Below, piece by piece: positions 1 through 41,114 of a stretch of DNA of 64,000 bases; position 1 is the stretch's first letter, and every line of letters begins with the position of its first letter. The stretch spans positions 40,090-104,089 of IMG/VR virus record IMGVR_UViG_3300043447_000395; one strand, written 5' to 3'. The notes under the pieces were generated by a model. The model ran no database searches. It saw only the letters and a list, made by a program, of their open reading frames with translations, and was not told the origin of the DNA. This DNA comes from a virus (lineage: Duplodnaviria; Caudoviricetes). Both the position numbers and the translations under genes were made by a program.

Positions 1-1276
1 TAATCACCCAAATAAGAAATTTTTCTTCTTTATAACACATACTCCTGGTCAATCTTTTATAAGAATTATGGAAGGTAATTCACCAATGCAACAAGAGGTG
101 ATTGATTGTTTAAAAAGAAATCCAAATTTCAATGTGATTTTTGGGAATGAACAAGAGTATGAGCATTATCATTCATTTAAGGCACTACATTATTGGTTAA
201 AAATGAATGGAATAAATGGGAATCAAATCTATATGGTTAACAACAATATTGATTTGAAGAGTTATAAAGAAAGATTGAATAGTGACATCAATGTATTCTC
301 TACATCAAAAGTGAGTACTCACATATACATTGCAATGACGTATATGATGCCTGATTTACATTTTAAAGAGGAGAAGAGTGGTAAGTTATTCTTATGTCAT
401 AATAGAAGAGTTCGACCACATAGATATGGATTGTTGGCTTTATTGAAAAAAGAAAATCTTTTGGATGACGTAGATTGGTCATTAGTTTGTGGCTATGAGG
501 CTGCCAATTTTGATTACGTGAGTTGGTATAGAGATATATTTGATATTTGGGATTTAAAAGAGTTACTCCCTGAGATTGATTATTTCCATAGTGTCGATAT
601 GAAGAAATGTATGTTCGAAGAAGAAAAAACTTGGTTTGATGATAGAGTCAATCCCGATGGAGTTTATTGGGGTGAGACTTACACTGCACCAACTTACGAA
701 GAGTCGTATTTTAACATTGTGACCGAATCGGAATATAGTTCTAACACAATACATATTTCCGAAAAATCATTCAAACCTTTTGTTACTTACCAATTCCCTT
801 TAATATTGGCATCTCCAAGACATATTCATGCAATTAGAAAAAGATATGGTTTTGATTTCTTTGATGATGTGATTGATCACAGTTATGATTTAGAACTTAA
901 CCATTCAGAAAGATTAATAAAATTTGTTAAGGAAATAAAAAGAATACAAGAGAATAAAGAATTTTTCATTGAGTTCTATAAGAACAACAAAGAGAGATTT
1001 GTAAAGAATCATGAATTATCAAAAAAATTAACTCATGATACTAGTGATAAAGATTTTCTTAAGAAATTATGCGGTCTTTATGAATATGAATTTGAGACTG
1101 GCGTTAGAAGGGTAAACGAAGACTTTGAAGATGATTTCTATGAAAAACAATTAGAAAGATACGAACAAAGTGGTGTTGAACCTAAAGATCCAATTGAAGT
1201 TGAAACACAAAAATTAATTGAGGGGGTATTAAATCAAGTGACTCCTCAACCTCCCGTAAAAAGAAATTTAATTTAA
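1..1276 (+). CDS. 5'-truncated glycosyltransferase-like protein (GT10/fucosyltransferase-like C-terminal motif)
   Basis: Frame is open from position 2 to the ATG at 68, so the gene starts before the window. Motif YEESYFNIVTES...ISEKSFKPF...FDFFDDVIDHSYD resembles the GT10 E-x(7-8)-(I/V)(S/T)EK region. Confidence 0.45.
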   Translation, partial: NHPNKKFFFFITHTPGQSFIRIMEGNSPMQQEVIDCLKRNPNFNVIFGNEQEYEHYHSFKALHYWLKMNGINGNQIYMVNNNIDLKSYKERLNSDINVFSTSKVSTHIYIAMTYMMPDLHFKEEKSGKLFLCHNRRVRPHRYGLLALLKKENLLDDVDWSLVCGYEAANFDYVSWYRDIFDIWDLKELLPEIDYFHSVDMKKCMFEEEKTWFDDRVNPDGVYWGETYTAPTYEESYFNIVTESEYSSNTIHISEKSFKPFVTYQFPLILASPRHIHAIRKRYGFDFFDDVIDHSYDLELNHSERLIKFVKEIKRIQENKEFFIEFYKNNKERFVKNHELSKKLTHDTSDKDFLKKLCGLYEYEFETGVRRVNEDFEDDFYEKQLERYEQSGVEPKDPIEVETQKLIEGVLNQVTPQPPVKRNLI

Positions 1277-2209
1277 ATGAAAAAAGTATTAATAACAGGT
1301 TGTAGTGGGTTAGTCGGTACCCACTTAATAAAAAAATGTATCGATTTAGGTTACGATGTTGTAGGAACCGATTTATATAGAAATGAATTCTTACCCATGG
1401 ATGGTTGGCGTTTCATCAAGAAAGATTTAACATCACCGAATGGTGTCGAGGAGTTATTTCTAAATAATACCTATGATGTGGTGTTTAATACTTTTGGTGT
1501 TAAAGGTTCACCTATGAGAGCTAAAACTAAACCTGTTGATTTTTTATACCCATCTTTTAAAATCAACACTGAAATAATCAATCAATGTGCTATGTCAAAT
1601 ATTTGGTTGGTTTTTGTTAGTTCGGTTGGTGTTTATGCACCTTCTGAAAAATTCATAGAAGATAGTGTTTGGGAAACATTACCTGGCCAAGCCGATTGGT
1701 TCCCTTCTTGGAGTAAAAGAATGGGTGAGTTATTACTTGAAGCTTATAGTGTTCAATATGGATATAAAAAATGGTCAATAGTACGTCCCGCAAACATATT
1801 TGGTGAGTACGATGATTTTAGTGGTAACGGAACTGTAATAGCATCTACAATTAAAAAAGTTGTTGACTCAAGTGGTCAAATCGAAGCGTGGGGAGACGGT
1901 TCTCCGATTAGAGACTTTGTTTACGCGGGTGATGTTGCAAATGGATTAATTAAGATGTATGAAAATAAAATAAACGATGTTGTAAATTTTGGTTCAGGTA
2001 TTGAAATTACAATTAAAGAAATCGTTAATAAAATAGTTGACATTAGTAATAAAGAAATCGAAGTGAAGTGGGATTCATCTAAACCGAACGGAGATTTAAA
2101 AAGATTAATGGATACAACAAAACAAATAAAATATGATATTTTACCTGAAATATCATTCGATAAAGCTTTAAAAAATGTATATGAATTCTACTCCAATACA
2201 ACCAAATGA
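1277..2209 (+). CDS. NAD-dependent epimerase/dehydratase (GDP-L-fucose synthase-like SDR, non-canonical active site)
   Basis: TGCSGLVG Rossmann motif, RPANIFG, WGDGSPIRDFVYAGD, WDSSKPNG. Confidence 0.85.
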   Translation: MKKVLITGCSGLVGTHLIKKCIDLGYDVVGTDLYRNEFLPMDGWRFIKKDLTSPNGVEELFLNNTYDVVFNTFGVKGSPMRAKTKPVDFLYPSFKINTEIINQCAMSNIWLVFVSSVGVYAPSEKFIEDSVWETLPGQADWFPSWSKRMGELLLEAYSVQYGYKKWSIVRPANIFGEYDDFSGNGTVIASTIKKVVDSSGQIEAWGDGSPIRDFVYAGDVANGLIKMYENKINDVVNFGSGIEITIKEIVNKIVDISNKEIEVKWDSSKPNGDLKRLMDTTKQIKYDILPEISFDKALKNVYEFYSNTTK

Positions 2210-2927
2210 TTATTTAGATGAAGGTGCCTATGTAGGTAACATAATGGATTTTATTAATGATGACGAATATAACGAAATGTTATCAGTGATTGAAAAGGTA
2301 AAAGAATATGCAACTATAAATCGTGAAACTGAATTGTATTGTCGATATATGATTAATGGTGATAATAGTAATTATGAACACAAAATACCATTAAGTGAAG
2401 TCGATTCAAGAGATTTATATATAAAAGAAAATAATTTTACAATTTTTCAAAAATGGTATGAGTTTTCAATTAAAACAGAACCGGAAAAACCAGACCTTTT
2501 CGAATTTTTCATAAAGTTCTGTAAAAGAATCTTAAATCATTTTTATCCCAACTATGAAATTAATTATAATGCGAGAACCGGTGGCTTCACTTTATATGAA
2601 GATGGTCATTTTATTATCGACCATAAAGATGGTAACAACGTTGGTCGTGTTTGTGTAATTATTCTTTATCTTTCCCCTGAATCCGAGTATAATAATGATG
2701 GAGGTGGAGAATTAGTTGTTAAAACTAATTCACATAAACTATACACAATTAAACCAATTTTAGGTACATTTAGTTTATTAGATTTTTCCGAAAATGACAT
2801 TCATCATCAGGTAAACATGGTTAAAAATGGTTTCAAAAGATACGCATTTATTAACTTTTTTAATCTTAAAGAAGGTCAAGAATTTATTGTTAGGGAAGAC
2901 AAAGCGGATCACACAAAATTAATCTAA
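2175..2927 (+). CDS. 2OG-Fe(II) oxygenase (prolyl-4-hydroxylase-like fold)
   Basis: H-x-D (DHKDG), ILYL, GGEL, distal His (HHQV) and Arg (KRYA). Confidence 0.8.
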   Translation: MYMNSTPIQPNDYLDEGAYVGNIMDFINDDEYNEMLSVIEKVKEYATINRETELYCRYMINGDNSNYEHKIPLSEVDSRDLYIKENNFTIFQKWYEFSIKTEPEKPDLFEFFIKFCKRILNHFYPNYEINYNARTGGFTLYEDGHFIIDHKDGNNVGRVCVIILYLSPESEYNNDGGGELVVKTNSHKLYTIKPILGTFSLLDFSENDIHHQVNMVKNGFKRYAFINFFNLKEGQEFIVREDKADHTKLI

Positions 2928-2959: not shown

Positions 2960-3934
2960 ATGAACAAAGATGTCAAGATTTTAATCACCGGAGGTTCGGG
3001 GTTAGTAGGTCAAAATTTAACCGAAAGATTAATTAACGAAGGTTATACTAATTTAAGAGTTAACTTACATAAAAGAGGTGTTAGAATTGAATATGACGGT
3101 GTTGAATATACACATCATGATTTACAAACATATCAAGGGTGTCGTGAAGCAACTGAAGGTGTAAATGTAGTATTTCATGCTGCTGCTTCAACATCAAATG
3201 CCGTAGATACTGTCGTTGATCCATTAGCACATGTAACACCTAATGTTGCAATGAATAACTTTTTAATTGATGCATCATGGAGAAGTGGTGTTGAACATTA
3301 CATATTTATATCGTCGAATACTGTGTATCCACCAAAAGGTGATGAACCTGTTGTTGAAAGTGATTTCTTATTTGATGAACCTTACCCCGTTTACTTCCCT
3401 GTTGGTTGGATGAAACGTTACGCTGAGGTTCAATGTGAACTCTACGCAAAATACTTACCTCGAACAATGAAGTGTACTGTTATTAGACCAGCAAATTTGT
3501 TTGGTCCACACGATAAATACGATTTCAACAAGTGTCACGTAACCCCTGCAACAATTCGTAAAGTTGCCGATAAGATGAATCCAATACCAGTATGGGGTGA
3601 TGGTACTGAATTAAGAGATTTATTATATGTTGGTGATTTTGTCGAAGCGTTACAAGTGGTAATGGAAAAAGAAACAGAAATGTTCCAAACATATAATATT
3701 GGTTCTAATGAAGTTCACTCAGTGCTAGAAGTTTTGGATTTAATGAAAACGATTGCTGAATACGATGCACCTACAGAATTTATCAGTGGTAAACCGTCAA
3801 TGATTCCAACACGTAAAATCGATTCTAATAAGATTAAAGAAAAATTAGGTTGGGAATCTACCACATCATTGGCAATTGGATTAAAGAAAGCCTACGATTG
3901 GTATAACGAAAACAAAAGTGAATTTAATAAATAA
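2960..3934 (+). CDS. NAD-dependent epimerase/reductase (GDP-L-fucose synthase-like SDR)
   Basis: TGGSGLVG, HAAA, RPANLFGPHDKYD..CHVTPATIRK, WGDGTELRDLLYVGD. Confidence 0.85.
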   Translation: MNKDVKILITGGSGLVGQNLTERLINEGYTNLRVNLHKRGVRIEYDGVEYTHHDLQTYQGCREATEGVNVVFHAAASTSNAVDTVVDPLAHVTPNVAMNNFLIDASWRSGVEHYIFISSNTVYPPKGDEPVVESDFLFDEPYPVYFPVGWMKRYAEVQCELYAKYLPRTMKCTVIRPANLFGPHDKYDFNKCHVTPATIRKVADKMNPIPVWGDGTELRDLLYVGDFVEALQVVMEKETEMFQTYNIGSNEVHSVLEVLDLMKTIAEYDAPTEFISGKPSMIPTRKIDSNKIKEKLGWESTTSLAIGLKKAYDWYNENKSEFNK

Positions 3935-5070
3935 TGTGGTTAGAATCACAGAAATATCATTTACATATTGAACTAACATCTAAGTGCAATTCGGCTTGTC
4001 CGAATTGTCCTAGATTTGTTATGGGTTCCACAAAGTTAAATCCAGCAGTTTCATTAGGTGAAATCAAATTAAAAGACATCAAGAAATGGTTTAGTGTTGA
4101 TTTCATTAAAAAAATTGGTAGTATAAACTTTTGTGGTAACTTAGGTGACCCTACGAATTGTACTGAGATGAATGAAATTGTTGAATACTTTTATAAGAAC
4201 AACAATCAAATCATGATTGAAATACATACCAATGGTGGAGCCAGAAATGTTGATTTTTGGAAAAAATTAGGTGAACTCTCTAAAATTGCTGGTGACAATA
4301 TTTTAGTCATTTTTAGTGTAGATGGATTAGAAGAAACTAACCACATTTACAGAAGAAATGTTAAGTGGGAAAAACTTGTAGAGAACATTACCACATATAC
4401 AAGTAACGGTGGCTATGCCATATGGGAATTCTTATTATTTGCACATAACGAACATGAAATCTATTTGGCCAAATATAAATCTAAAGAATATGGTTTTAGA
4501 CATATTAGATTTAAAAGAGCCGCAGGTTTTGAAGACTACTTAAATAGTAGAACAGTACCTATGGGTGTCTACGATAAAGAGGGTAATTTAGAATATGTTA
4601 TCGAACCATCTGTTGATTATCCTAATTCATCACTACCATATGTTGGTAATCAGTGTACTCCTCCAAGTAAAGTAAACTTAGACATTTATAATTATAATTT
4701 TAATCGTTTAGATTACGAAGAGTATTCGATTTTTAAAAATAATAAGATTACTTGTAAATCATTAAAACCTAATGGTGAGATTGAAGTATTTTTAAGTTAT
4801 AAAGGTGAGATAAGACCTTGTTGTTTTATTGGTGTTGATTTGGATAAACACTCTTTAGGTGGTTACAATACCCAATTAAAAGAAATATTTAATTATGACT
4901 GTAATTTAAACACCAATAGTTTAGATAATATTTTAGAATTTTTTGATAAAAAAATAAAAGATAAATGGAATGATACATTTGAAAATGGTAAATGTATAAA
5001 ATGTAGTATGACATGTGGTATATCCTCACAAATCGATCATTCGAGATTATATAATGATATTGAAATATAA
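3934..5070 (+). CDS. Radical SAM protein with C-terminal SPASM/twitch-like cysteines
   Basis: CNSACPNC (CxxxCxxC), GNLGDP, HTNG, FSVDG, C-terminal PCC...CIKCSMTC. Confidence 0.85.
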   Translation: MWLESQKYHLHIELTSKCNSACPNCPRFVMGSTKLNPAVSLGEIKLKDIKKWFSVDFIKKIGSINFCGNLGDPTNCTEMNEIVEYFYKNNNQIMIEIHTNGGARNVDFWKKLGELSKIAGDNILVIFSVDGLEETNHIYRRNVKWEKLVENITTYTSNGGYAIWEFLLFAHNEHEIYLAKYKSKEYGFRHIRFKRAAGFEDYLNSRTVPMGVYDKEGNLEYVIEPSVDYPNSSLPYVGNQCTPPSKVNLDIYNYNFNRLDYEEYSIFKNNKITCKSLKPNGEIEVFLSYKGEIRPCCFIGVDLDKHSLGGYNTQLKEIFNYDCNLNTNSLDNILEFFDKKIKDKWNDTFENGKCIKCSMTCGISSQIDHSRLYNDIEI

Positions 5071-5073: not shown

Positions 5074-6066
5074 ATGAAAACAAAATCAGATAAAGTTTAC
5101 AAAGGAATGGTTTTCGCAGGCTGTTCTTTTACTTGGGGTCAAGGATTGTATTATTACTCTAATCTACCGACATTACAAGAACCCCCACCAGATGCTTATA
5201 ACTCACAATTGGTAACTCATTCACATAATGCATATAGAAAAACATTATATTTTCCGAGATTAGTTGCTAATCACTTTAACACTTTTGAAGTTTCGATGAT
5301 TCAAAATGGTGGTTCAGAACAAACATCATTAGATTATTTAAAATGTGTTCACGGAATTGCGGAACCTAACACTGGATTTTATACAATGAACCATTCATTT
5401 GATGAAATCGAATACATTGTATTTCAAACATCACAACCACAAAGAAATACCCATTACTATGTGTATCAATCACCATATGATGGTAATGAATATGAATTAT
5501 CAGAATTTAGAACATATTCACCTGATACACATGATAAGTTTTACAAATATCTTGCTCATCAGAAAAAAACATACTTTGATGAATGGTATAATGAACACAT
5601 GAAAACTTGGGTTCGTATATTAAAACATAATTTACAATTTTACGAATCTAAAGGTATTAAAACATTAATCGTGAATTGGGAGGCGGAATACTTACCTTTT
5701 ATTAATGAAGATGAATGGTTATCAAAAAGAAGTATTGGTCTCGAATTTGAAGGTAAAGAATACACTTGTATTAGACAATTAATGAATGAGAATAGATTCT
5801 TACACATTAATAGTGATGAGGAACATTTTGAGGATACTCCTAAAGATCATCACCCATCAAAACAATGTCACAGAATTATCGCAGATAATATCATTAAAAA
5901 AATTGAGTCTAAGGACATCGTTTACGGTGACATGTTAGGTAAAAACATCGAACATTTAGAATACGACACAATCGTCGACAACATTTATAGTGACCGTGTC
6001 ACATATAATCCTAAAACAAGAAAAATAGAAAAAAAAGAAGATAATGGTACAAACAAGCTCATATAA
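5074..6066 (+). CDS. SGNH/GDSL-like hydrolase or acyltransferase
   Basis: N-terminal GCSFTWG, GGS block, C-terminal DHHP. Confidence 0.6.
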   Translation: MKTKSDKVYKGMVFAGCSFTWGQGLYYYSNLPTLQEPPPDAYNSQLVTHSHNAYRKTLYFPRLVANHFNTFEVSMIQNGGSEQTSLDYLKCVHGIAEPNTGFYTMNHSFDEIEYIVFQTSQPQRNTHYYVYQSPYDGNEYELSEFRTYSPDTHDKFYKYLAHQKKTYFDEWYNEHMKTWVRILKHNLQFYESKGIKTLIVNWEAEYLPFINEDEWLSKRSIGLEFEGKEYTCIRQLMNENRFLHINSDEEHFEDTPKDHHPSKQCHRIIADNIIKKIESKDIVYGDMLGKNIEHLEYDTIVDNIYSDRVTYNPKTRKIEKKEDNGTNKLI

Positions 6067-6583
6067 AGACGCATTAACTAATTCAATGACATATCTTGGT
6101 CAACAACCAGATACGGTCTTTATCGGTCAACAAGTTCTTTGGCACGGTAATCCAATGAGTACTACTATTGGTGAAGTTCCAAAAGACAAATTAATTGAGG
6201 TTCCGGTAATGGAAGAATCACAAATGGGTATGTCATTAGGCATGGCGATGACTGGACAATTTGTTATCACATTTTACCCGAGATGGGATTTTTTAATCTG
6301 TGCAACAAATCAATTAGTTAATCATGTTGATAAAATTAATTTAATGAGTCAAGGTAAATGGAATCCTAATATGATTATTAGATTAGGTAAGGGTTCAGAT
6401 AAACCTTTAGACCCAGGTCATCAACATAGAGGTAATTACTTTGACGAGTTTAAGTCTATGTGTCCTAACATTAAATTCCACGATTTGAAAGACGATAAAG
6501 AAATCGAATCGATTTATAAAAATGTTTACTCTGAGGGTGGTATTCATGTAATTGTTGAATACCCTGAGTTATATTACGTATAA
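6044..6583 (+). CDS. ThDP-dependent dehydrogenase/transketolase E1 beta-like subunit (pyrimidine-binding domain only)
   Basis: PVMEESQMGMSLGMAMTG, DFLICATNQLVN, GHQH; 179 aa, no C-terminal domain. Confidence 0.8.
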   Translation: MVQTSSYKDALTNSMTYLGQQPDTVFIGQQVLWHGNPMSTTIGEVPKDKLIEVPVMEESQMGMSLGMAMTGQFVITFYPRWDFLICATNQLVNHVDKINLMSQGKWNPNMIIRLGKGSDKPLDPGHQHRGNYFDEFKSMCPNIKFHDLKDDKEIESIYKNVYSEGGIHVIVEYPELYYV

Positions 6584-6591: not shown

Positions 6592-7479
6592 ATGGTAAAA
6601 CATTTAATTACAGGTGGTTGTAGTTTTAGTCATTCGGGTGCGGTGAGTGAAACATGGTTAGGTTCGTTAGTTGATTGGATGAAAGAAAAAAATCCTGAAT
6701 TGACTTTCGAACATACGGGTTATTCAAGTAATGGTCAAGATTTAATTCAGAAGAAGGTTATGTTATCATTATCTGAAGCACTTGATTCAGGTTTAAATCC
6801 TGATGAAATTTTAGTAGTTGTAATGTGGAGCGGGACCTTTCGTAAAGCTTGGTACATCGATAATCCATATGTGATTAAAGAAATGACAAACGAATGGTTA
6901 AAGTTTGTCGGTGGCATGTCAAGTCAATTTTTGGATTTAAAAAATAGTGTAGGTGATAATCCTAATTATTTCTACACCAAGAATGGTAGTAAATTTGAAT
7001 ACAACGCTAAGGGAGGTTGGTATTTTACTGTAAACGGTAGTGATTGTAAATTAGACTTTGTCCAAACACATTATCTTTTAGATGGTGATATGTATAATGG
7101 AATTGGTAAAATACATTCAAGTTTAGAGAACATCGTAATGCTTCAAAATTATTGTAAATTAAAAAATGTTAAGTTAATTAATCAGTTTTTTATGGACCAC
7201 GTTTTTGAAGACATCGAAAAGAATAAAGAACACCAATTGATAAACTACTTATACAATCAATTAGATTTTGATAATATGATTGTGGAAGGTATGTTTGAAT
7301 ATCTTCATACTCTATTAGGGATTGAAAGAAAGGATTCAATTAATGTTACTCATGAAGGTAGATTAGAAATTGATAAGGACACCAAATACTTTAATAAAGA
7401 TGGGTTTCATCCTAGTAGATACGGTGCAGACTTATGGTGTCAGAATAATTTATTCCCCTTTTTAAATAATAAAATATAA
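6592..7479 (+). CDS. SGNH-like protein
   Basis: GGCSFS, VMWSG, DGFHP. Confidence 0.6.
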   Translation: MVKHLITGGCSFSHSGAVSETWLGSLVDWMKEKNPELTFEHTGYSSNGQDLIQKKVMLSLSEALDSGLNPDEILVVVMWSGTFRKAWYIDNPYVIKEMTNEWLKFVGGMSSQFLDLKNSVGDNPNYFYTKNGSKFEYNAKGGWYFTVNGSDCKLDFVQTHYLLDGDMYNGIGKIHSSLENIVMLQNYCKLKNVKLINQFFMDHVFEDIEKNKEHQLINYLYNQLDFDNMIVEGMFEYLHTLLGIERKDSINVTHEGRLEIDKDTKYFNKDGFHPSRYGADLWCQNNLFPFLNNKI

Positions 7480-24482: not shown

Positions 24483-24488
24483 ATGTTT

Positions 24489-24510: not shown

Positions 24511-24514
24511 CTTA

Positions 24515-24522: not shown

Positions 24523-24546
24523 CTTTATTATTTCGTTTAAGTAAAT

Positions 24547-24579
24547 AAAAAAAGGAGACTTTTTATGGTCTCCTTTTTT
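24547..24579. terminator. Intrinsic terminator (bidirectional shape)
   Basis: AAAAAAAGGAGAC-loop-GTCTCCTTTTTT directly after the 24599 gene stop. Confidence 0.8.
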
Positions 24580-24598
24580 AACATGTATCATTATTTTT

Positions 24599-32153: not shown

Positions 32154-32636
32154 TTAACACCAACCACCTTTATCAATAACAGGAGTTAATAGTGTGAAAG
32201 TTGCTGGAAAATTAAATGTTCCTGTTAACGATGTACTAGCACCACCATTACTTATTAGATAATCAGTATTAGATGGGTCAACAGTTGATATATTTATTTG
32301 GTGATTATCTTGACGATACGCCACTTTAACATAACCATTTGATACTGTACTACCTGAACTCCAAGTTACGCTAAATATATAACCATGATAGTCCATTGAA
32401 AATCCTGCAGCAGTAAATGTTGCTTCTATTGATGCAAAATCACTTAAATACGCATACACACCACAACCTAAATCAGTTGATTGATTAACTGTAAATCCAC
32501 TGAAACCATTCCATTCACCTTGTGGATTATTACAAACTGGTCCACTATATTCAGCACCATTAAACATCGCAGGTGTTATTGTAAATGACGGAACATTTGT
32601 TTGTGTAAAAAATCCGTTTTGAAATAATATTCCCAT
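32154..32636 (-). CDS. Hypothetical (probable virion) protein
   Basis: Ser/Thr/Gly-rich. N-terminus MGILFQNGF resembles MSITFSNGF of the upstream gene. Confidence 0.55.
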   Translation of the reverse strand: MGILFQNGFFTQTNVPSFTITPAMFNGAEYSGPVCNNPQGEWNGFSGFTVNQSTDLGCGVYAYLSDFASIEATFTAAGFSMDYHGYIFSVTWSSGSTVSNGYVKVAYRQDNHQINISTVDPSNTDYLISNGGASTSLTGTFNFPATFTLLTPVIDKGGWC

Positions 32637-32654: not shown

Positions 32655-35600
32655 TTAACTAATTGTTATTGTTATTGTGTCACTATATGTGAATGGACTT
32701 GCAACGGTAACTGTTTGTAATGCGGTTGGGATAAGAAGGAAACCTTGAGGGTCCAAGAAAAACGCACCGCTACCACCTACGTAAGTTGCTGTATTACCAT
32801 TTTGAGTAACGTTTATTGTACCACCATTCGTTTGTAAATTTGTAAATTGTGTTGTATAGTCTGTACCTGCATTATTCTTTTTATTGAACATAACATATTG
32901 AGCAACACCATTATTTGGGTTATATGTTGATATTGGTGGTCCACCAACATTAGTATAGAATAATGCCTGACCATCCGATGATGCTGGCATTGTTACATTA
33001 CTACCCGATGCCACATAGAAATTCCATCCAGCACTTACCGCACCTGTTGAAGGTGTTGGTGTTGGTGTTGGTGCTATACCTCCTACCACAACATCAATTG
33101 AACCTCCTGACCATGTGTAAGTATATGTTCCCTCAGTTAATCCTAATGCCGATAATGATGTATTATTAAATGTTTGAGTACTTGAAATATTAGCACCTGA
33201 TGTATATCCTGATGGTACAATCAATAAATATGGTGGTGTCATATCAATCATCACACCAAACGCTTGACCAGTACCTGAACTATTTCCTAATCCAGAACCA
33301 CTTCCAAAATTACTTGGTACAGATGTGAATCCACTATATGAACTACCTGATGAACCACTAGCACCACAAACAAATGTTGCGTTGCTAATACCTAAACCTC
33401 CATTTCCAAATGGTCCAACACTAGCAGATACTAAAGTTAAACCACTAAGGTCAACTGTTCCTGATGCAGACATAACAACATTCGAACCTGAATTACTAAT
33501 TGTAACAACCATTGGTGCCGAAGTTGATAGTGTACTACTTGGTGTAGGAGTTGGGGTTGGTGTTCCAGTGTTGGTTGGTGTTACTGTATTTGTTGGGGTT
33601 ACTGTAGGGGTTACCGTATTTGTTGGTGTTACTGTAGGTGTAGGGGTTGCAGTTGGACTTACTGGTGCGTTTGTTATAGCCTCAATAAATGCAGTATCTC
33701 CTGTAACAGTTACACCTATATTATTTGCACCTTGTACTAATGGTGCAACTCCAGTACCAACGAAACTAAAGAAGTCACCATCAACACATATAATATTATA
33801 TTCTCGTCCTTTAACTACATTAACAGTTGTTGATGTGGTATATAGAGTACCATTAAAGGTAATACCTGATATTTCTGGTATAACACTAATTTCCAACGGA
33901 ACAATGTATTGTGTCGATGGTGTTACTGTAGGTGTTGGGGTTGTTGTTGGTGTATTTGTTGGAGTTGATGTAGGTGTTGATGTTGGTGTTGGGTTTACAC
34001 AACTAGGTACATCAAAAATCATATTGTTTATAATTTCTACAACTGTAAAACCATCATTACTATCATTAAGAACATAATATCCATCAGTTAGTGATACGGT
34101 TGTATTTGAGTTGTTGCTAGAATAAACCGTGTCAAGCACAGTTGGCGTTTGGTTATTTACATAAACAAAAGGTCCCATAGTAATACTACAACTATAGCTA
34201 GATAAACACTCAACAGCTTGACATGCTAATGATAAATCATAACCAAATGTACCTGTTACAGTTGTTTCGTGGGCAATTTGAAATTGATATGGATGAAGTA
34301 CTGATGTTGCTGACGGTGTAGGTGTCGGTGTTTCAGTATTTGTTGGTGTAGGTGTCGGTGTTTCAGTATTTGTTGGTGTAGGGGTTGGGGTAGGAGTTGA
34401 ACCTGCAAATCCATAACCTTCTTTAGAACTGTTAAAATCAGTTAAAATATCATCAGTTGACCTACAGTTATCATAAACTTTAAGTGAACCAAGAACTAAC
34501 CCTACGTTACTGTTAGTATAGAAATCTTTTGAAATATTCACCGTACCATTAGGGATACTAAGATTGTTGTTAGCTCCTGAGTTACTTGCTCCAACTATCT
34601 CACCATTAACCATATAAGTTAATGATGTTCCTCCTTGCGCAACAACAAGATGATACCAAGTATCATTTTGGAATTGAGAATTTAAATAAACGGTTTGATC
34701 CGAAACGTTATATTTAACAAAATTTAATGCGGTTCCGCTATTATCAATTCTAAATGCCCATCCACCATTATTATTACCACCAGCAGCCAATAATGACATA
34801 TTACTAGGTATTGATGGTATTTTAACCCACATTTCAATTGTGAACGAGTTTACAATTTGATTGTATTGGGTTGTTGATATTGCCGAAGCATAACTACCAC
34901 CACCTGTGAATGTATAACCTGTTACACCATTAGTCCAAGGATTTGAACCTGTGTAAGTGAAGTCATTATTGAATGGTGATAAATCTATTAAGTTGTTACT
35001 TGCATTAATACCTGTAGTATAATCTAACCAAGTAATTAATCCATTAGGACCATCTGTACCGTTAGGTGAAAATTGTGTCAATGGAACCGAACTTGGTGTA
35101 GGGGTTGGTGTAGGGGTTGGTGTTGGTGTTACTCCACCAGGTGCCGCAACGTTACTATTTGATGTTGCAGGTGTAGTTGTAGTCCAAGGACTTGATAAAT
35201 TACATCCCTCCCAACTTGAAATAATAACTATTTGATCATCAAATTCATTATTATAAATTATCGTAACATCTCCAGTAACTTGATCATTTGAGTTATTAAC
35301 CGCATACCATATTTCAGCTTGTTGACCACAGTTACTATTAGGGTCTAAATATTTTTTTCTTAATGTCCATGTTAATCCTAAACCATTAATACTTGTGATA
35401 CTACGTGGGACACCTGTGTTTCCACCACTCTCCACTCCCGAAGCAATTACAATTACCGTGTTCGCAGCAGCAGTGAAGTTAAATTGTGAATTGTATGTTG
35501 TTGACGCTTCGAAACTATCGTAGTTTTGTAATGTGGGTGACGAAGTATCTCCAACCAATGCATCACCAATTACTGTGATTCCTCTGGAATCATCATCAAA

Positions 35601-35903
35601 AGCATCAAAAGAAGCGTCCCCCTCAACTGCTAAATTAGTTTGTGGTGTTGTAAATTGTTTGTATGAAAGATATCCATATTGCCAATATTGAGCACCTCCA
35701 TTTTGACGATTGGTTACAGGGGTCCAGTCAACAGCATAACCTGGTGAATCGTCAAAACTAAAAGGTATAGCAGCAAAAACAATACCTGTGGTATTGCTTT
35801 CGGCAACTGACATATTTAATTTCCAAGTTCCTACACCATATGGGTTTGTTCCACCTCCACCTGAGGTACCCATACCAAAACCATTACTAAAAGTTATCGA
35901 CAT
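32655..35903 (-). CDS. Multidomain adhesin-like virion protein with LamG domain and Pro-Thr linkers
   Basis: FTIEMWVK...WYHLVV...YMVNG LamG core, several (TP)n linkers; 30-bp tandem duplication at 34321-34380. Confidence 0.7.
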   Translation of the reverse strand: MSITFSNGFGMGTSGGGGTNPYGVGTWKLNMSVAESNTTGIVFAAIPFSFDDSPGYAVDWTPVTNRQNGGAQYWQYGYLSYKQFTTPQTNLAVEGDASFDAFDDDSRGITVIGDALVGDTSSPTLQNYDSFEASTTYNSQFNFTAAANTVIVIASGVESGGNTGVPRSITSINGLGLTWTLRKKYLDPNSNCGQQAEIWYAVNNSNDQVTGDVTIIYNNEFDDQIVIISSWEGCNLSSPWTTTTPATSNSNVAAPGGVTPTPTPTPTPTPSSVPLTQFSPNGTDGPNGLITWLDYTTGINASNNLIDLSPFNNDFTYTGSNPWTNGVTGYTFTGGGSYASAISTTQYNQIVNSFTIEMWVKIPSIPSNMSLLAAGGNNNGGWAFRIDNSGTALNFVKYNVSDQTVYLNSQFQNDTWYHLVVAQGGTSLTYMVNGEIVGASNSGANNNLSIPNGTVNISKDFYTNSNVGLVLGSLKVYDNCRSTDDILTDFNSSKEGYGFAGSTPTPTPTPTNTETPTPTPTNTETPTPTPSATSVLHPYQFQIAHETTVTGTFGYDLSLACQAVECLSSYSCSITMGPFVYVNNQTPTVLDTVYSSNNSNTTVSLTDGYYVLNDSNDGFTVVEIINNMIFDVPSCVNPTPTSTPTSTPTNTPTTTPTPTVTPSTQYIVPLEISVIPEISGITFNGTLYTTSTTVNVVKGREYNIICVDGDFFSFVGTGVAPLVQGANNIGVTVTGDTAFIEAITNAPVSPTATPTPTVTPTNTVTPTVTPTNTVTPTNTGTPTPTPTPSSTLSTSAPMVVTISNSGSNVVMSASGTVDLSGLTLVSASVGPFGNGGLGISNATFVCGASGSSGSSYSGFTSVPSNFGSGSGLGNSSGTGQAFGVMIDMTPPYLLIVPSGYTSGANISSTQTFNNTSLSALGLTEGTYTYTWSGGSIDVVVGGIAPTPTPTPSTGAVSAGWNFYVASGSNVTMPASSDGQALFYTNVGGPPISTYNPNNGVAQYVMFNKKNNAGTDYTTQFTNLQTNGGTINVTQNGNTATYVGGSGAFFLDPQGFLLIPTALQTVTVASPFTYSDTITITIS

Positions 35904-35951: not shown

Positions 35952-38900
35952 TTAATATGTTCCTCCGTCAATTAGACTTGAGAACTCTAACAGTCCTGTT
36001 AGTTCATTGTATCCTAACAATCTATCAGTTACGTTTCCTGTATCTGTTGTACCAACAAATCCTAACACATTTGAATCGTTTCTAAATACGATGTATGATG
36101 AGTATTCACCATTATCTGTTGAACCAACTCCTTCAATTGTGAAGTTTCCGTTAATTAACATGTTACCATTATCAGAATCTACGGTAAATTTATTAGTATT
36201 TAAAGCCAATGTTGTATCTAAATACGTTAATAAACTATCAGAGATATGGTCATCACCAGTTGCAATTGGGAAGTGACCTACCGATAATGTAGTCTCATCA
36301 CCTAAAGAACCTGTGTTTAATGGGCCTGAAATCAAACGAGCTGAAGCCACAGAACCTAAATGATCAGGATGTGAGTAAATCCAAACGTTGTTTGTTGAAT
36401 CCCAAAGTAATGAACCTGTAACACCCGCATTTGAACCTGAATCATAAACCGCTAAACCTGCAAATCTTTCGAAAGGTGCGTATGTGTTTAAGTTGATAAT
36501 GTTTGTTCCGATGTCAACTTGAGAAGCTGAGATGTGAACAACACTACCTGAACCTAAGATTGATAAGTTTCCTGACACATATAAATCATTATGAATGTGT
36601 GTAGGTCCGTAAGTATCGAATGAACCAGAGATTGAAATACTACCAGTAATTCCAACCTGAACATTTTCAAAACTTAAATTACCTAAATTATCTAAACTAA
36701 CTTTATGAGTTAATTCAGAAGATACGTCGTAGGTTTCTAAACTAATACCTGATTGTTGTACTTTTAATCTGTTAGTACCGTTTTCACTATTGTCAGCGTA
36801 AATCTCAACATAATCAGAATTATCACTATGAATATAAACGTTACCATCAGCACCTAAATCTAAATTTCCACCATCAAAACCATATATGTAGTTTGTATAT
36901 AATGTATTACCATCATTAAAATACATGCTATTTGATGTGTAAACACTACTACCAAATCTAATACTACCACAATCATTGAATATAACTAATTGATCATCAT
37001 TTGTATCATAATAGATGTCACCACATTGACCGTTGAAATAAACGTGACCCTCATTCATTTCAATATGAGAACCGTTGTCTAATGTTAAGTTACTGTTGTT
37101 CGCAACTAAAGATGAGTTAAATAAACCTGAACCGTCCGATACTATTAATGAACCTGTGATTGTCGCTCCACTTGATAAGTTCGCAAAACTACCAGTAAAT
37201 CCACCTGGTATTGTTAAATTACCATCAACGTCAAATGACATTGTTTTTGATGAACCGTTATAATCTGTTACTAACTCAATAGGATCAGTCGAACTGTAGT
37301 TTCTTAATGCGAACGTATCATTAGCATATAATCTAAGATCATCACCAGCAGTTATAGTTACATCGTTGTCAGCTTCAAAAGTCATATCGCTACTTGAGCT
37401 CATGTAGATGTCATTACCATCATGTGTATATAACTCGAATGAACCCGATGTGTTTATATTTACATCATTGTTTGTGTTCATTGTAAATCCATTAGATTCA
37501 CTATATGTAAATCCTGAATAATCAACCAATGAACCTGAAGCTCCTACTGTTACAACTCTTCCTTCTGTTAAACCATCGAACGCAATTGAGTTCAATGAAA
37601 TATTTGTAAAGTGTGCATTTTCAGCCCAAACATTATTCCATGTTTGACCTGAACTACCTAAATCAAATGATGAACCTGTTTGAGGTAAGATAGAAGAACT
37701 AACTTCACCATTGAAGTTAATTGTGTCTCCTGTGTAATCACCTAAGTTGATACTACCACTGAATACAATGTCACCTGTTACTCTTAATGAACCTGTCACA
37801 TTAACAGTTCCACCTTCAGCCCATAATGAAATGTCACCAGCAGATGCTAATTCAACATATGGAGCACCGTCGGCACCATTACCGTTTAATGCCAAATAAT
37901 TCCATTGTTCTGTAGTTCCTCTTAAGTAATCCGTTTGAACATCACCACCATCTTGAACAATTAAGTTTGAACCACTTGTCAATAACATGTTACTGTTCTG
38001 AGCAACTAAACCACTGTCAAATGTTGCTGAACCATTGGATACTACTAAAGCACCTGTTACTGAAGTATTACCATTTATATTTAATGATGAACTTACAAAT
38101 ACTCCGTTTACACCAACAAGTGAAACAGTTTGTAAAGAATCGTCAATTTTTAAGTAATTGGTGTCATCACCAAAGAAACTATATCCACCACTTGCTTTAA
38201 TGTGTGTATCACCTAAACCAGTGTTATATATTTCAAAATATCTAACATCTCCTTGGTCAGGTTGTAAATAAAGTGAACCAGTACCTTCGATTTTTGTTGC
38301 AAATAATGAACCTGTTAATTCAACATCACCATTAATATATAATTTGTTTCCGGCACCATTTAATGCGTAAACATCACCAGTAGTCGCATCGGTGTTTAAG
38401 TTTACTACTCCACCATCATATGATGCAACATTTGTATTTCCACCACCTTCAGCCCATAACCAAAGGTTTCCGCCACCATCCGCAGTAACATCCAAACTAT
38501 TTTGGTCTGAATATATTCCAACGTATCCATCACTATTAGCAGTAAGGTAACTACCATTACCACCAGACATTTGAACACCGTTTGTTGAATCTTGAAGGTA
38601 TAATTTACCGTCGTTGTAGATTTCAGACCCTGTGTTGTCACCAACATATATTGTTCCCGTTACATAAAGATTGTCTGTTGTTGAAATTTTTGTATTAACT
38701 TGTAATCCAAAATCAGGTGAAATAGATGCAGTTGCACTACCACTAACAATTCTTGATAAATCAAGGTTTGTTACTCCTGACGCTGGAATGTTTGTCAAAC
38801 CACTCGCATCTCCAACAAACGAACCTGTAAAAAACGACGCAGTTACGTTAGTTGATTGTAAGTCATTAATTGTTACACCTGAGATAGTATTACCTTCGAT

Positions 38901-39218
38901 GTTACCCGTTAAATCAATCTGACTATTTCCAACGTTACTGTTGTTCAATATGTAGAGGGATTTGTTAGAACTAGCATAGAATGGAGTACCATCTAAAGTT
39001 GTGCCGTAAGTTGATGCTACTAAGTTAGGAGCCTCACTACCAGCATAAAGTTTTGAAGCTGGTGAGTATAATCCTGAACCTTCATCTGTACCAATAAAAA
39101 CGAAAGGACCATTTAAATTACCGACTGAACCAGTCGCCATGATCAATTCACCTTTACGTGATGTTGAGTTTTTTACGGAATCTATCGAACCTCTTCTGTG
39201 TTTGATAATTTGTGCCAT
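35952..39218 (-). CDS. Long tail fibre-like protein
   Basis: N-terminal MAQIIKHRRGS..GEL, beta-repeat body, modules shared with other fibres (GSF.GD.SGL.NIPASGV; GSLLWDS.NN.WIY), C-terminal IDGGTY. Confidence 0.7.
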   Translation of the reverse strand: MAQIIKHRRGSIDSVKNSTSRKGELIMATGSVGNLNGPFVFIGTDEGSGLYSPASKLYAGSEAPNLVASTYGTTLDGTPFYASSNKSLYILNNSNVGNSQIDLTGNIEGNTISGVTINDLQSTNVTASFFTGSFVGDASGLTNIPASGVTNLDLSRIVSGSATASISPDFGLQVNTKISTTDNLYVTGTIYVGDNTGSEIYNDGKLYLQDSTNGVQMSGGNGSYLTANSDGYVGIYSDQNSLDVTADGGGNLWLWAEGGGNTNVASYDGGVVNLNTDATTGDVYALNGAGNKLYINGDVELTGSLFATKIEGTGSLYLQPDQGDVRYFEIYNTGLGDTHIKASGGYSFFGDDTNYLKIDDSLQTVSLVGVNGVFVSSSLNINGNTSVTGALVVSNGSATFDSGLVAQNSNMLLTSGSNLIVQDGGDVQTDYLRGTTEQWNYLALNGNGADGAPYVELASAGDISLWAEGGTVNVTGSLRVTGDIVFSGSINLGDYTGDTINFNGEVSSSILPQTGSSFDLGSSGQTWNNVWAENAHFTNISLNSIAFDGLTEGRVVTVGASGSLVDYSGFTYSESNGFTMNTNNDVNINTSGSFELYTHDGNDIYMSSSSDMTFEADNDVTITAGDDLRLYANDTFALRNYSSTDPIELVTDYNGSSKTMSFDVDGNLTIPGGFTGSFANLSSGATITGSLIVSDGSGLFNSSLVANNSNLTLDNGSHIEMNEGHVYFNGQCGDIYYDTNDDQLVIFNDCGSIRFGSSVYTSNSMYFNDGNTLYTNYIYGFDGGNLDLGADGNVYIHSDNSDYVEIYADNSENGTNRLKVQQSGISLETYDVSSELTHKVSLDNLGNLSFENVQVGITGSISISGSFDTYGPTHIHNDLYVSGNLSILGSGSVVHISASQVDIGTNIINLNTYAPFERFAGLAVYDSGSNAGVTGSLLWDSTNNVWIYSHPDHLGSVASARLISGPLNTGSLGDETTLSVGHFPIATGDDHISDSLLTYLDTTLALNTNKFTVDSDNGNMLINGNFTIEGVGSTDNGEYSSYIVFRNDSNVLGFVGTTDTGNVTDRLLGYNELTGLLEFSSLIDGGTY

Positions 39219-39248: not shown

Positions 39249-39290
39249 TCTTGACTTTTTTCTATCTCAATATCTTATCATTTATTTTTT

Positions 39291-41114
39291 TTAAAAAAAT
39301 CCGTCTCCACAGTCAATTATCGTAAATGTCGACATATTACTTCTATCACCTAACGTACCTAAATTTTGTATGGTCATTGATGCCGACTTGATTTGTTGTC
39401 CAATCTGATTTTTTAATATACTCATTGCTCCTGATATGATTAATGAATCTGCATCAATATCATTCATTTGAACCAATGTTGTAGTACCTTCAACTCTTAG
39501 GTCACCTTTGATGACCATAGAACCGGTTGTATATATTGAACCTGTGAAATTGTGTGTGTCGTCTTGTGTATCACCGAATGATGTTGAACCACTCGCATAT
39601 TGAGTGGTCATATTTGTCACCGATGATGAAATGATTAACTGTTTTGCGGTAATAGTACCATCAACAGTTAAATTGTTTGAGATGAAAGCCGAACCTGTAA
39701 CATTTAAATTACTACCATCGAAAGACATGTTGCTTTCAACTGTGGCATATGGTTTAACACCATTTAATGTTATAATACCATTATCTGTATCACCTGAAAG
39801 TGTTAGAGAACCTGGTATACCGATTGGTGTAATTGTAAATAAATCACCATCATTTGGGTCTATTCCGTTTGATGTTAATTGTACTACTGTAAATTTCTCA
39901 AATCCGAATTCGTACGGAGTTACTTGAGTAATTTGTAAAAACTTGTATGTTGTTGCGTCGTTAAGATTAACAACTTTTAAAACTGTACCTACTTGGATTG
40001 AATCTAAATAAGCCCCAATTGATGCTCCGTTCAAATCCTCAGGTCTATCGTTAATTACTATTTCGGTTGGCGAACTACCCCATGAACCTGCGTTCATTGC
40101 AAAGTAGTTATTACCCGGATTTACCGATGTATCTGTTGTTGCCTTAAATTTCCATTTTGCAAAGTGACCTTCTTGTCCTGATGTACCTGATGTACCACTG
40201 GTACCCGCAGTTCCTGATGAACCACTTGTTCCACTTGAACCGTCACTACCTGATGTACCATCGATACCTGATGTACCTGATGTACCACTAGAACCGTCAC
40301 TACCTGAAGTACCGCTAGAACCTGACGTTCCACTTTCACCTGATGTTCCTGAAGTTCCATCACTACCTGATGTACCACTTGTACCGCTAGTACCACTAGA
40401 ACCATCACTACCTGACGTTCCACTTTCACCTGAAGAACCACTCGTACCACTAGTACCTGTACTTCCCGATGAACCACTTGTTCCTGATGAACCATCACTA
40501 CCTGATGTACCACTAGAACCTGACGTACCTGATAATCCTGAAGACCCACTTGTTCCTGATGAACCGCTCGTACCTGATGAACCATCACCACCAGCAGCAC
40601 CACCTAAGTTAACTTCCCAAAAGGAACGACTATTAGAACCTACTACATTTGTTACATAAACACTAAGTGCACCTGTTAGATCATCATATGTTATTACATC
40701 ACCATCAATATAATTTGTTCTATTGAACGCAATTAATATTTTATGAGCAACAATGTATGATAAACCAATACCAACGTTTAATGATATCGTTTGTCCACTT
40801 GTTAATGTTGATAAATTAAATGTGTCGGATGATTCAGTTTTAAATCTGTCTCCACTATTTCCACTCGAACCAGACGTTCCACTTGAACCTGACGCACCTG
40901 AAGTACCGCTAGTTCCTGAAGATCCTGCGGGTCCCATTCCACCACCCCCTGTACCACCAGTGGCAATCAAATCGGATAAACTTGTACCTGATAGGTACAA
41001 ATTGTTCGCGTAGACCGCTTCAAGTGGGGTTTCTGGTGAACCTAAATTGATAATTGAGCCCGAAGGAACGTTTTCGGTATCAACTTGGGTCCAATTAATT
41101 TTTTGTAAAGCCAT
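39291..41114 (-). CDS. Collagen-like fibre protein
   Basis: G-x-y tracts; modules DNGIITLNG...ATVESNMSFDGSNLNVTGS and SGSTSFGD.QDD.H.FTGS shared with the other fibres. Confidence 0.7.
   Translation of the reverse strand: MALQKINWTQVDTENVPSGSIINLGSPETPLEAVYANNLYLSGTSLSDLIATGGTGGGGMGPAGSSGTSGTSGASGSSGTSGSSGNSGDRFKTESSDTFNLSTLTSGQTISLNVGIGLSYIVAHKILIAFNRTNYIDGDVITYDDLTGALSVYVTNVVGSNSRSFWEVNLGGAAGGDGSSGTSGSSGTSGSSGLSGTSGSSGTSGSDGSSGTSGSSGSTGTSGTSGSSGESGTSGSDGSSGTSGTSGTSGSDGTSGTSGESGTSGSSGTSGSDGSSGTSGTSGIDGTSGSDGSSGTSGSSGTAGTSGTSGTSGQEGHFAKWKFKATTDTSVNPGNNYFAMNAGSWGSSPTEIVINDRPEDLNGASIGAYLDSIQVGTVLKVVNLNDATTYKFLQITQVTPYEFGFEKFTVVQLTSNGIDPNDGDLFTITPIGIPGSLTLSGDTDNGIITLNGVKPYATVESNMSFDGSNLNVTGSAFISNNLTVDGTITAKQLIISSSVTNMTTQYASGSTSFGDTQDDTHNFTGSIYTTGSMVIKGDLRVEGTTTLVQMNDIDADSLIISGAMSILKNQIGQQIKSASMTIQNLGTLGDRSNMSTFTIIDCGDGFF

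Follow-up and report, generated by a model that had tools for sequence, protein, structure and literature searches.

The 64,000-nucleotide (nt) stretch analysed here, called the window throughout, forms the last 64 kb of a 104,089-nt virus contig (IMG/VR record IMGVR_UViG_3300043447_000395, positions 40,090 to 104,089). It encodes fibre proteins with collagen-like tracts made almost entirely of glycine, serine and threonine (S/T collagen). As an initial annotation of the window had reported, these genes are directly abutted by an island of sugar-related genes, which comprises 22-23 tightly packed genes at 1-21911. Farther upstream on the contig lies a gene for a relative of the protein glycosyltransferase (GT) TibC, next to another S/T-collagen fibre gene. 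The contig has no terminal repeat, its completeness was estimated at 31% by CheckV, and it covers roughly a third of the genome of a T4-like aquatic jumbo myophage. We asked how the fibres, the TibC-like enzyme and the sugar island are related. The genes of the fibre cluster (lengths in amino acids, aa) are:

21948-24506, minus strand: collagen-like fibre, 852 aa, 149 triplets (Pfam Collagen, E 1e-61)
24599-29617, minus strand: collagen-like fibre, 1672 aa, 277 triplets (Pfam Collagen, E 7e-109)
29707-31383, minus strand: collagen-like fibre, 558 aa, 20 triplets (Pfam Collagen, E 9e-7)
31473-32144, minus strand: pirin-like cupin (Pfam Pirin)
32154-32636, minus strand: 160-aa protein
32655-35903, minus strand: 1082-aa LamG protein with six Pro/Thr-rich linkers (Laminin_G_3)
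35952-39218, minus strand: 1088-aa non-collagen fibre protein that has domains in common with the collagen fibres
39291-41114, minus strand: collagen-like fibre, 607 aa, 60 triplets (Pfam Collagen, E 2e-21)

The four collagen-like fibre genes contain 149 + 277 + 20 + 60 = 506 uninterrupted Gly-X-Y triplets, which have the periodicity of the Collagen family PF01391 and reach 90 triplets in the longest tract. Among the 1012 X and Y residues, 930 (92%) are Ser or Thr and one is Pro, while the rest are mostly Asp or Ala. This composition is far beyond chance, and bears out the earlier description of the tracts as nearly all Ser/Thr and without Pro. The known stabilisers of the triple helix, Pro or hydroxyproline and charged pairs, are missing from the tracts apart from the single Pro, and there is almost no charge except for Asp in some Y positions. 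Galactosylation is required for a (Gly-Pro-Thr)10 peptide to form a triple helix, and viral collagens are enriched in Thr triplets (PMC11923368). PHROG matches of the collagen proteins in the cluster are to tail-fibre and virion-structural families. A conserved unit of about 60 aa (…ISSSV…FGDT.DD.H.FTGS…) stands before the collagen tracts (21948-29617 and 39291-41114); it recurs in a "structural protein" of phage Mel-JY01 (L045:3065-4591), which adjoins an FkbM-TibC-like fusion (locus PP395634, 3065-8430).

TibC and Aah act in the cytoplasm, where they heptosylate many of the serines in a repetitive adhesin. The relative encoded on the contig lies outside the window:

genome 15231-17366 (22.7-24.9 kb before the window): 711-aa TibC/Aah-type protein

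In its operon the TibC-like gene is accompanied by a GT4-FkbM fusion, by two methyltransferase genes and, 60 nt downstream, by a fifth S/T-collagen fibre gene, whose product has an S74 chaperone. The 711-aa protein passes the cut-off of the equivalog family for bacterial autotransporter heptosyltransferases (BAHT; TIGR04414) with 275.2 bits against a cut-off of 200, over residues 365-707, and its C-terminal 345 residues match TibC (PDB 4RB4) with an E-value of 1.1e-57. The structure paper on TibC lists Asp110, Thr226, Lys230, Arg286, Trp305 and the iron-finger Cys as key residues (PMC4358343). The equivalents of the catalytic base Asp110 (within LGD; 4RB4 is the D110A mutant), of the four iron-finger residues Cys339/342/358/370 and of three of the four ADP-heptose-binding residues (Thr226, Lys230 and Trp305) are conserved. 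Like the TibC-TibA and Aah-AIDA-I systems of E. coli (PDB 4RAP/4RB4; PMC4358343), the phage enzyme is soluble, cytoplasmic and encoded beside a long, Ser-rich repetitive protein that is a possible target of hyper-glycosylation. Unlike TibC, it has an extra N-terminal part of about 340 aa and shares its operon with the GT4-FkbM fusion and the two methyltransferases.

The association between TibC-like enzymes and S/T collagen extends to other phages. Our samples comprised 36-79 records each, many of them fragments. A pattern of seven S/T triplets occurred in at least 120 IMG/VR stretches, of which 43 records, including nine complete genomes, were examined. A TibC-like gene was present in 19 of these 43 records and in six of the nine complete genomes; in 13-14 of 18 cases, no more than 10 kb separated it from the S/T-collagen gene. 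The TibC-like domain was found in 380 IMG/VR stretches. When loci were picked by the enzyme alone (the best 79 of the 380), an S/T-collagen open reading frame (ORF), defined by a threshold of 70% Ser/Thr, was located within 10 kb in 50 loci and within 3 kb in 45. In about 40 of the 79 this ORF started 49-87 nt after the TibC-like gene on the same strand. De-replication at 80% identity left 42 TibC-like clusters, 27 of them with an S/T-collagen gene, and several of the collagen-negative loci were truncated or contained collagen just below the 70% threshold. Control loci picked by the GT7 enzymes described below had S/T collagen in 7 of 41 cases, a difference from the TibC-picked loci with a Fisher p of 1e-6, uncorrected for the common ancestry of the contigs.

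The window also contains two genes that resemble those of the heptose pathway:

56587-57375, plus strand: sugar kinase similar to PfkB and the HldE kinase domain (rfaE_dom_I E 2e-23, under the cut-off; PfkB E 1e-18)
57336-58151, plus strand: short-chain dehydrogenase/reductase (SDR) similar to ADP-glyceromanno-heptose 6-epimerase (TIGR02197, 197 bits against a cut-off of 274.6)

The best curated match of the kinase is the heptose-7-phosphate kinase domain of HldE. Judged by these similarities, the two genes possibly supply the donor for the TibC-like enzyme, and their presence favours a role in modifying the fibres. We suggest, with about even confidence, that the phage glycosylates its own fibre proteins within the cytoplasm of the host, and that the TibC-like enzyme is the best candidate for the initiating step. 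Considering its family identity and its repeated tight linkage to S/T-collagen genes, this step is the best supported part of the proposal. The enzyme would attach a heptose, or a related ADP-sugar, at Ser positions within the proline-free (G-S/T-S)n tracts, while the kinase-like and epimerase-like genes would help to supply an ADP-heptose-type donor.

Next to the fibre cluster, the minus-strand part of the island contains a module of glycosyltransferase and radical SAM genes:

10326-11774, minus strand: N-twitch radical SAM, paralog in a three-member array
11793-13151, minus strand: double-LamG protein (Laminin_G_3, E 3e-10)
13136-14527, minus strand: N-twitch radical SAM, paralog in the same array
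14521-15120, minus strand: small LamG-like protein between radical SAM genes
15098-16492, minus strand: N-twitch radical SAM, third paralog (NF033640, 346.9 bits against a cut-off of 170)
16502-17908, minus strand: GT7 (beta-1,4-galactosyltransferase-type) with LamG (Pfam Glyco_transf_7N/7C, E 1e-17 to 1e-20 for the pair)
17905-19350, minus strand: second, tandem GT7 with LamG (Pfam Glyco_transf_7N/7C)
19559-20410, minus strand: GT2_4-type GT-A protein, found in 40 of 41 related loci
20458-21219, minus strand: Methyltransf_24 methyltransferase, found in 39 of 41 related loci
21216-21911, minus strand: 231-aa protein, found in 8 of 41 related loci

Relatives of the GT7-LamG genes were found on 41 IMG/VR contigs, and a tblastn search of GenBank phages with GT7-LamG gave zero matches. 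Five genes (Methyltransf_24, GT2_4, GT7-LamG, GT7-LamG and radical SAM) form a conserved module whose order is kept in 38-41 of the 41 loci. In the relatives it is often followed by an SDR, RmlC, a thiamine diphosphate (ThDP)-dependent alpha subunit, a GT-B protein and two more SDRs.

When compared with PDB sequences, the GT7 enzymes matched B4GalT7 (E 4.5e-29). An AlphaFold2 (AF2) model built with 23 homologues reached a predicted local distance difference test (pLDDT) score of 90 and superposed on Drosophila B4GalT7 (3lw6) with a Z-score of 25.8, a root-mean-square deviation of 2.1 Å over 205 aa and 30% identity, spanning residues 1-481. This superposition needs model residues 1-165 and 405-481 to be taken together. 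Between them, residues 166-405 fold as a jelly roll of LamG/pentraxin-like type, with structural matches to LamG-type and carbohydrate-binding domains at a Z-score of about 21. The DVD and WGWG(F/Q)ED-type motifs (WGWGFED/WDWGQED) are kept in both paralogs, which score above the cut-offs of Pfam 7N/7C, and the catalytic domain, contiguous in CAZy GT7, is here interrupted by LamG. Thus the association of LamG with GT7 that had been annotated stands, with the LamG nested inside the catalytic domain and not appended to it. The phage enzymes share the fold and the DVD and WGWGxED motifs with animal B4GalT7/B4GalT1 (CAZy GT7; PDB 3LW6). They differ from these in the insert of about 240 aa, in their tandem arrangement and in lacking a membrane anchor. 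B4GalT7, their closest relative by structure, extends Ser-linked xylose on proteoglycan core proteins, which are Ser-Gly-rich, and the kinship to it is a further point in favour of the fibres as acceptor. So is the position of the GT module, which starts 36 nt after the 852-aa fibre gene in the same direction, without a terminator-like hairpin between them.

The three array radical SAM paralogs are 36-56% identical. The protein at 15098-16492 has a CNFKCAYC core and an N-terminal CGFC...C...CNYC cluster, as expected of NF033640, and N-twitch relatives occur in 38 of the 41 related loci. These enzymes, together with their LamG partners, might instead act on a peptide or protein by cross-linking or epimerisation, perhaps tied to upstream ATP-grasp-Hint-peptide genes and to common C-terminal tags. 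The radical SAMs are weakly similar to peptide-maturase families, stand-alone LamG proteins alternate with them, and several island proteins have a K-x-x-L-I tail in common with upstream tagged enzymes. We consider a peptide target extremely improbable: the radical SAMs fall in NF033640, a family that is itself uncharacterised, they adjoin the GT7, GT2 and methyltransferase genes in 38 of the 41 loci, and the array contains no precursor-like small peptide.

Several results weigh against fibre glycosylation, above all against a part of the module in it. As a test of its proposal, the initial annotation had suggested asking whether S/T-collagen genes co-occur with those for GT7-LamG and twitch radical SAM enzymes, and the test failed in both directions. 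Of 36 module-bearing records, 5 contained S/T collagen under a strict pattern, (G-S/T-S/T)x6; the two complete genomes among them (288 kb and 170 kb) both lacked it. Conversely, 2 of the 43 S/T-collagen records and none of their nine complete genomes had a GT7-LamG relative, and none of the 43 had an N-twitch radical SAM above the family cut-off. A TibC-like gene was found in 8 of the 36 module-bearing records and again in neither complete genome. As for the TibC-like enzyme, known BAHT substrates are beta-helical, self-associating autotransporter adhesins, unlike the collagen-like S74 fibre encoded next to it; this mismatch bears on the substrate of the enzyme and not on its family. The position of the sugar-binding Arg286 is occupied by Leu, so the donor may differ from heptose. 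Neither GmhA nor the HldE adenylyltransferase domain turned up on the 31%-complete contig, and in Mel-JY01, a cultured Microcystis phage, the fibre-like protein beside the TibC-like fusion has no collagen tract. Finally, regions of pelagimyophages and cyanomyophages that combine fibre, glycosyltransferase and radical SAM genes have been read as remodelling the host surface (PMC7029224).

The GT7/radical SAM module varies independently of both S/T collagen and TibC, and is present in complete T4-like genomes that have neither. The Ser/Thr tracts can therefore not be its obligate acceptor. The general idea of phage self-glycosylation of Ser/Thr fibres thus gains real comparative backing from the TibC-like linkage, while the specific proposal that the GT7/radical SAM island is the glycosylation system fails its own test; the island may nevertheless elaborate a glycan of the virion. 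The acceptor of the module may be fibres generally, other virion proteins such as the LamG protein with Pro/Thr linkers, or host envelope glycans.

If the acceptor lies on the host, the island sugars would be added to lipopolysaccharide (LPS), capsule or S-layer glycans during infection, which would block superinfection or keep progeny off debris, and the fibres would be adjacent through a common hypervariable host-recognition region. We regard this main rival as somewhat unlikely. The independence of the module agrees with it, as do the T4-like nature of the relatives, since the T4-type major capsid protein gp23 was present in five of five module-bearing relatives checked, and the presence of RmlC, SDRs, heptose enzymes and a NodU-like carbamoyltransferase, which are typical of surface-polysaccharide loci. 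Lipid-linked acceptors on the inner side of the membrane are also accessible to soluble glycosyltransferases. The hypervariable region of pelagimyophages and cyanomyophages resembles the present locus in belonging to T4-like, aquatic, low-GC phages and in its fibres, collagen repeats, glycosyltransferases and radical SAM cassettes; its glycosyltransferases, most commonly of family GT8, were ascribed in pelagimyophages to modification of the host O-chain (PMC7029224). That paper contains no description of GT7-LamG, TibC-like enzymes or S/T-only collagen.

On the other side, the module lies 3' of fibre genes and is co-directional with them in the present phage and in most relatives, and the same genome encodes a bona fide member of a protein O-glycosyltransferase family that is linked to fibre genes. 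When all 111 contig ORFs were scanned for hydropathy, no multi-pass membrane protein was found in the 56-kb sugar region, where no protein exceeds one doubtful hydrophobic stretch; the only such protein of the contig is encoded at 51577-53109 in the window. The sugar region thus has no flippase, polymerase or initiating polyprenyl-phosphate transferase and does not resemble a Wzx/Wzy- or ABC-dependent polysaccharide locus, though the host's own machinery could still serve. This lack of multi-pass proteins likewise speaks for the fibres as the target.

Fibre genes are commonly found upstream of the module in its relatives, with S/T collagen-like fibres in only 7 of 41 loci. The module is also found beside S74-chaperone fibres with 22-39% Ser/Thr that are not collagen-like, including in two complete genomes. 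The target could thus be other virion proteins, such as the LamG protein with Pro/Thr linkers, capsid decoration or tail proteins, and the G-S/T-S tracts would then be unmodified hydrated spacers. In agreement with this, the six Pro/Thr linkers of the LamG protein (32655-35903) are mucin-like, and mycobacteriophage glycans are located at the C-termini of capsid and tail-tube subunits according to the account in PMC12619734 (Freeman 2023). We find this quite improbable, as no relative of the Pro/Thr-linker protein was found in the 41 module loci, and the tight TibC-like to S/T-collagen cassette points to collagen-bearing fibres as one of the targets at least. The linkers themselves (TPTPTP...) are plausible O-glycosylation sites. 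A Pfam match of 32655-35903 to Toxin_R_bind_N was rejected as meaning more than the common ConA-like jelly-roll fold.

The remaining genes of the island within the window, including its plus-strand part, which converges on the minus-strand genes, are:

1-1276, plus strand: 3' part of an 896-aa tandem GT-B gene (full ORF genome 38675-41365, starting 1415 nt before the window)
1277-2209, plus strand: NDP-sugar SDR (Pfam Epimerase, E 1e-38); the nearest models for the SDR pair are GDP-fucose synthase and dTDP-glucose dehydratase
2175-2927, plus strand: 2-oxoglutarate (2OG)-Fe(II) oxygenase, flanked by both SDRs (2OG-FeII_Oxy_3, E 3e-9)
2960-3934, plus strand: second NDP-sugar SDR (Pfam Epimerase, E 1e-42)
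3934-5070, plus strand: radical SAM, divergent N-twitch relative (Pfam Radical_SAM, E 4e-6; NF033640 51 bits, under the cut-off)
5074-6066, plus strand: SGNH/DUF6071-like putative esterase/acyltransferase, GCSF block I motif
6044-6583, plus strand: ThDP-dependent E1 beta-like subunit (Transket_pyr, E 2e-7)
6592-7479, plus strand: SGNH/DUF6071-like putative esterase/acyltransferase, GCSF block I motif
7479-8282, plus strand: SGNH/DUF6071-like putative esterase/acyltransferase, GDSF plus later D-x-H
8279-9091, minus strand: SGNH/DUF6071-like putative esterase/acyltransferase, GDSF plus later D-x-H
9095-9892, minus strand: SGNH/DUF6071-like putative esterase/acyltransferase, GDSF plus later D-x-H
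9892-10317, minus strand: highly conserved 141-aa protein after the radical SAM array

Pfam matches agree with the gene list given earlier for the SDRs, ThDP beta subunit, 2OG oxygenase, methyltransferase, four radical SAMs and LamG proteins. The five SGNH-like proteins it named are backed by the GCSF/GDSF and D-x-H motifs, by DUF6071 matches and by profile comparison, in which the two paralog groups are related (hhalign E 6.5e-5). Both SDRs and the 2OG oxygenase score under the equivalog cut-offs in NCBIfam. The conservation of the 141-aa protein is unusually strong, with 73-79% identity across four related loci, where its neighbours show about 50-60%.

While this gene content agrees with the initial annotation, the island does not start at the window edge. 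It continues for at least 34 kb upstream, giving a sugar region of 56 kb overall. This part begins with a ThDP E1-alpha gene, RmlC, an SDR, two 2OG oxygenases, SGNH proteins and the NodU-like carbamoyltransferase. A block of small tailoring enzymes comes next, followed by the TibC-like operon and, farther upstream, GT2 and GT4 genes. The partner of the E1 beta-like subunit is the E1_dh alpha subunit just upstream of the window (L003:8055-8690). Island proteins encoded at 1-1276, 2175-2927, 5074-6066 and 11793-13151 and by nine ORFs at genome 21369-28286 have a short C-terminal tail in common, consisting of a basic residue, then S/T/N/K and then two hydrophobic residues (KRNLI, HTKLI, TNKLI, PAKII, KKSLI, KKTLL). 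Being found on otherwise unrelated enzymes, the tail could be a docking or sorting signal for tailoring enzymes.

The first gene of the window is cut by the window edge and really encodes the 896-aa tandem GT-B pair. The full protein is a tandem duplication of a module of about 400 aa, with halves that are 43% identical and the C-terminal tail KRNLI, and has relatives in 22 of the 41 GT7-LamG loci. An AF2 model of the first half (pLDDT 80.8) had only GT-B glycosyltransferases among its top 50 VIA matches (Z 12.6-8.4), with FUT9/FUT13 at Z 11.1, and every Foldseek match was GT-B as well, at weak E-values. A search of PDB sequences with the 896-aa protein and the radical SAMs returned nothing useful. 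The protein carries a YENSYFNIVTET..FISEK motif that resembles the GT10 pattern ENS...TE...EK, and on the strength of the model its module is possibly GT10/fucosyltransferase-like. This weak assignment fits the fucose-synthase-like SDRs nearby.

The GT-B model also matched the alpha- and beta-glucosyltransferases of T4 (Z 12.1 and 11.7, among the top five). Together with nucleotide-sugar enzymes, the tandem GT-B protein might thus glycosylate hydroxymethylated bases of the DNA, as in T4 and other phages. Besides this match, the phage is T4-like and encodes a ThyA-family enzyme (phrog_160) and several DNA methyltransferases, and diverse DNA glycans made by viral glycosyltransferases are mentioned in PMC12619734 (Pyle 2024). 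However, the match in structure reflects the GT-B fold in general, and fucosyltransferases score the same with higher sequence identity. The 896-aa gene is located among sugar-tailoring and fibre genes and not in a replication module, and GT7, LamG, SGNH and carbamoyltransferase proteins have no known role in DNA modification. DNA hypermodification is therefore very improbable.

The motif RTATTTATA, a candidate phage promoter judging by its sequence and placement, is found 20-70 nt upstream of each fibre gene (24523, 29660, 31457 and 39249 on the minus strand), with a variant at the 607-aa gene. It also precedes three other operons (genome 5541, 12513 and 29948), including the upstream GT4 operon and an ATP-grasp gene. 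The T4 late promoter TATAAATA was rejected as driving the fibre genes, since the coding strand reads RTATTTATA, its reverse complement. A scan for sigma-70 promoters and terminators was overall no better than shuffled sequence. The 1672-aa and 852-aa fibre genes are separated by a strong 12-bp hairpin with flanking A and T runs (24548-24579), which resembles a terminator acting in both directions. Another motif, TATATTATA, occurs at window 21923, 20422 and 47079 (minus strand) and at genome 30995, 3-8 nt before the ATG of four genes. It precedes the first genes of the glycosyltransferase module and is too close to the ATG for a normal promoter with a leader.

Outside the island and the fibre cluster, the window encodes other phage functions:

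41777-63467: right-hand part of the window with an AAA ATPase, a NusG-like antiterminator, two DNA methyltransferases, a sigma-70-type sigma factor, ClpP, an amidase and SbcC
47106-48965: 619-aa protein with an EF-hand/dockerin-like calcium motif

Scans of the window for tRNA genes and Rfam families were empty. Searches of GenBank phages gave zero matches both for 19 kb of the window (megablast) and for the 619-aa protein (tblastn). The single bacterial-genome match for GT7-LamG was the 23-kb contig VHCC01000006.1 (L269), binned in a freshwater Pelagibacterales metagenome-assembled genome, which carries GT7-LamG and N-twitch radical SAM genes. This contig is probably a mis-binned phage fragment, and bacterial ancestry of GT7-LamG was rejected accordingly. 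It gives a weak hint at an LD12/SAR11-like host.

Returning to the decoration of the fibres by the phage itself, a tentative order of later steps can be drawn up. After initiation by the TibC-like enzyme, the island would make unusual nucleotide sugars, for example of the 6-deoxyhexose type or with ThDP-dependent C-branching. Tailoring would involve methylation, carbamoylation, acylation or deacylation, and radical SAM chemistry. The soluble tandem GT-B, GT2_4 and two GT7 enzymes would then extend and tailor the glycan, with the inserted LamG lectin domain of GT7 holding the repetitive glycosylated acceptor. Its position, the missing membrane machinery, the kinship of GT7 to glycoprotein-type enzymes and the lectin insert lead us to infer that the island acts on the same glycan. 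Mucin-type GalNAc transferases have a lectin domain, and by analogy the insert could act in the same way on densely repeated sites.

Parts of this scheme are known from other systems. In the serine-rich repeat adhesins of Gram-positive cocci, hundreds of Ser/Thr are glycosylated stepwise in the cytoplasm by GtfA/B and follow-on glycosyltransferases; these soluble enzymes are encoded beside the substrate gene, and export uses an accessory Sec system. The structural matches of the tandem GT-B protein include GtfA, SdgB and Gtf3, while the repeats of these adhesins are not collagen-like and in sequence their enzymes are unrelated to the GT7 and TibC-like proteins. BclA of the Bacillus anthracis exosporium, with its anthrose and rhamnose genes, is also a hair-like trimeric collagen-like protein. 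Its repeats are largely Gly-Pro-Thr, with Thr in Y. The phage tracts differ in having Ser in Y and no Pro, and BclA is bacterial and served by different glycosyltransferases. Viral examples include the fibrils of Mimivirus, a case of giant-virus virion glycosylation. BclA's collagen-like part is densely O-glycosylated with unusual tailored deoxy-sugars (PMC10050317), and capsid and tail-tube proteins of mycobacteriophages are glycosylated (Freeman 2023, as cited in PMC12619734). In mycobacteriophages and giant viruses, as proposed here, the glycosyltransferases and sugar pathways that decorate surface proteins of the virion are encoded by the virus, but the enzyme families and acceptors are others, without collagen-like Ser/Thr tracts, TibC-like enzymes or GT7-LamG.

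In its fullest form, the proposal is that the proline-free Ser/Thr collagen of T4-like aquatic jumbo phages bears a complex heteroglycan, started by the TibC-like enzyme, extended by the GT7 and GT-B enzymes and diversified by radical SAM, ThDP, methyl, carbamoyl and acyl chemistry, and that this glycan, instead of hydroxyproline or salt bridges, enables folding of the helix and sets the host range. We consider this full version unlikely. The data show the gene content, the folds and the genomic linkage of TibC-like to S/T-collagen fibre genes; the fibres as acceptor, the identity of the sugar, a common acceptor for the GT7/radical SAM island and any effect on helix stability or adsorption are inferred from them.

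Virus-encoded protein glycosylation as such is already known. What the present locus adds is the presence of a TibC operon, a GT7/radical SAM module and at least five S/T-collagen fibres in one phage genome, and the clear negative for a partnership between GT7/radical SAM and collagen. We found no paper linking TibC/BAHT or Glyco_transf_7C with phages. Neither the GT7 with a nested lectin nor the N-twitch radical SAM family has been studied; both belong to the conserved five-gene module, of which GenBank phages yielded no example. Phage virion glycosylation has so far been documented for mycobacteriophages. If our proposal is true, the present system would add a second case, one that differs in mechanism and is apparently widespread, given the 380 TibC-like and at least 120 S/T-collagen stretches in IMG/VR. 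It could explain how proline-free, uncharged Gly-Ser/Thr-Ser tracts fold, and would change the reading of the "LPS-like" islands of marine and freshwater myophages, which are now called host-surface modifiers.

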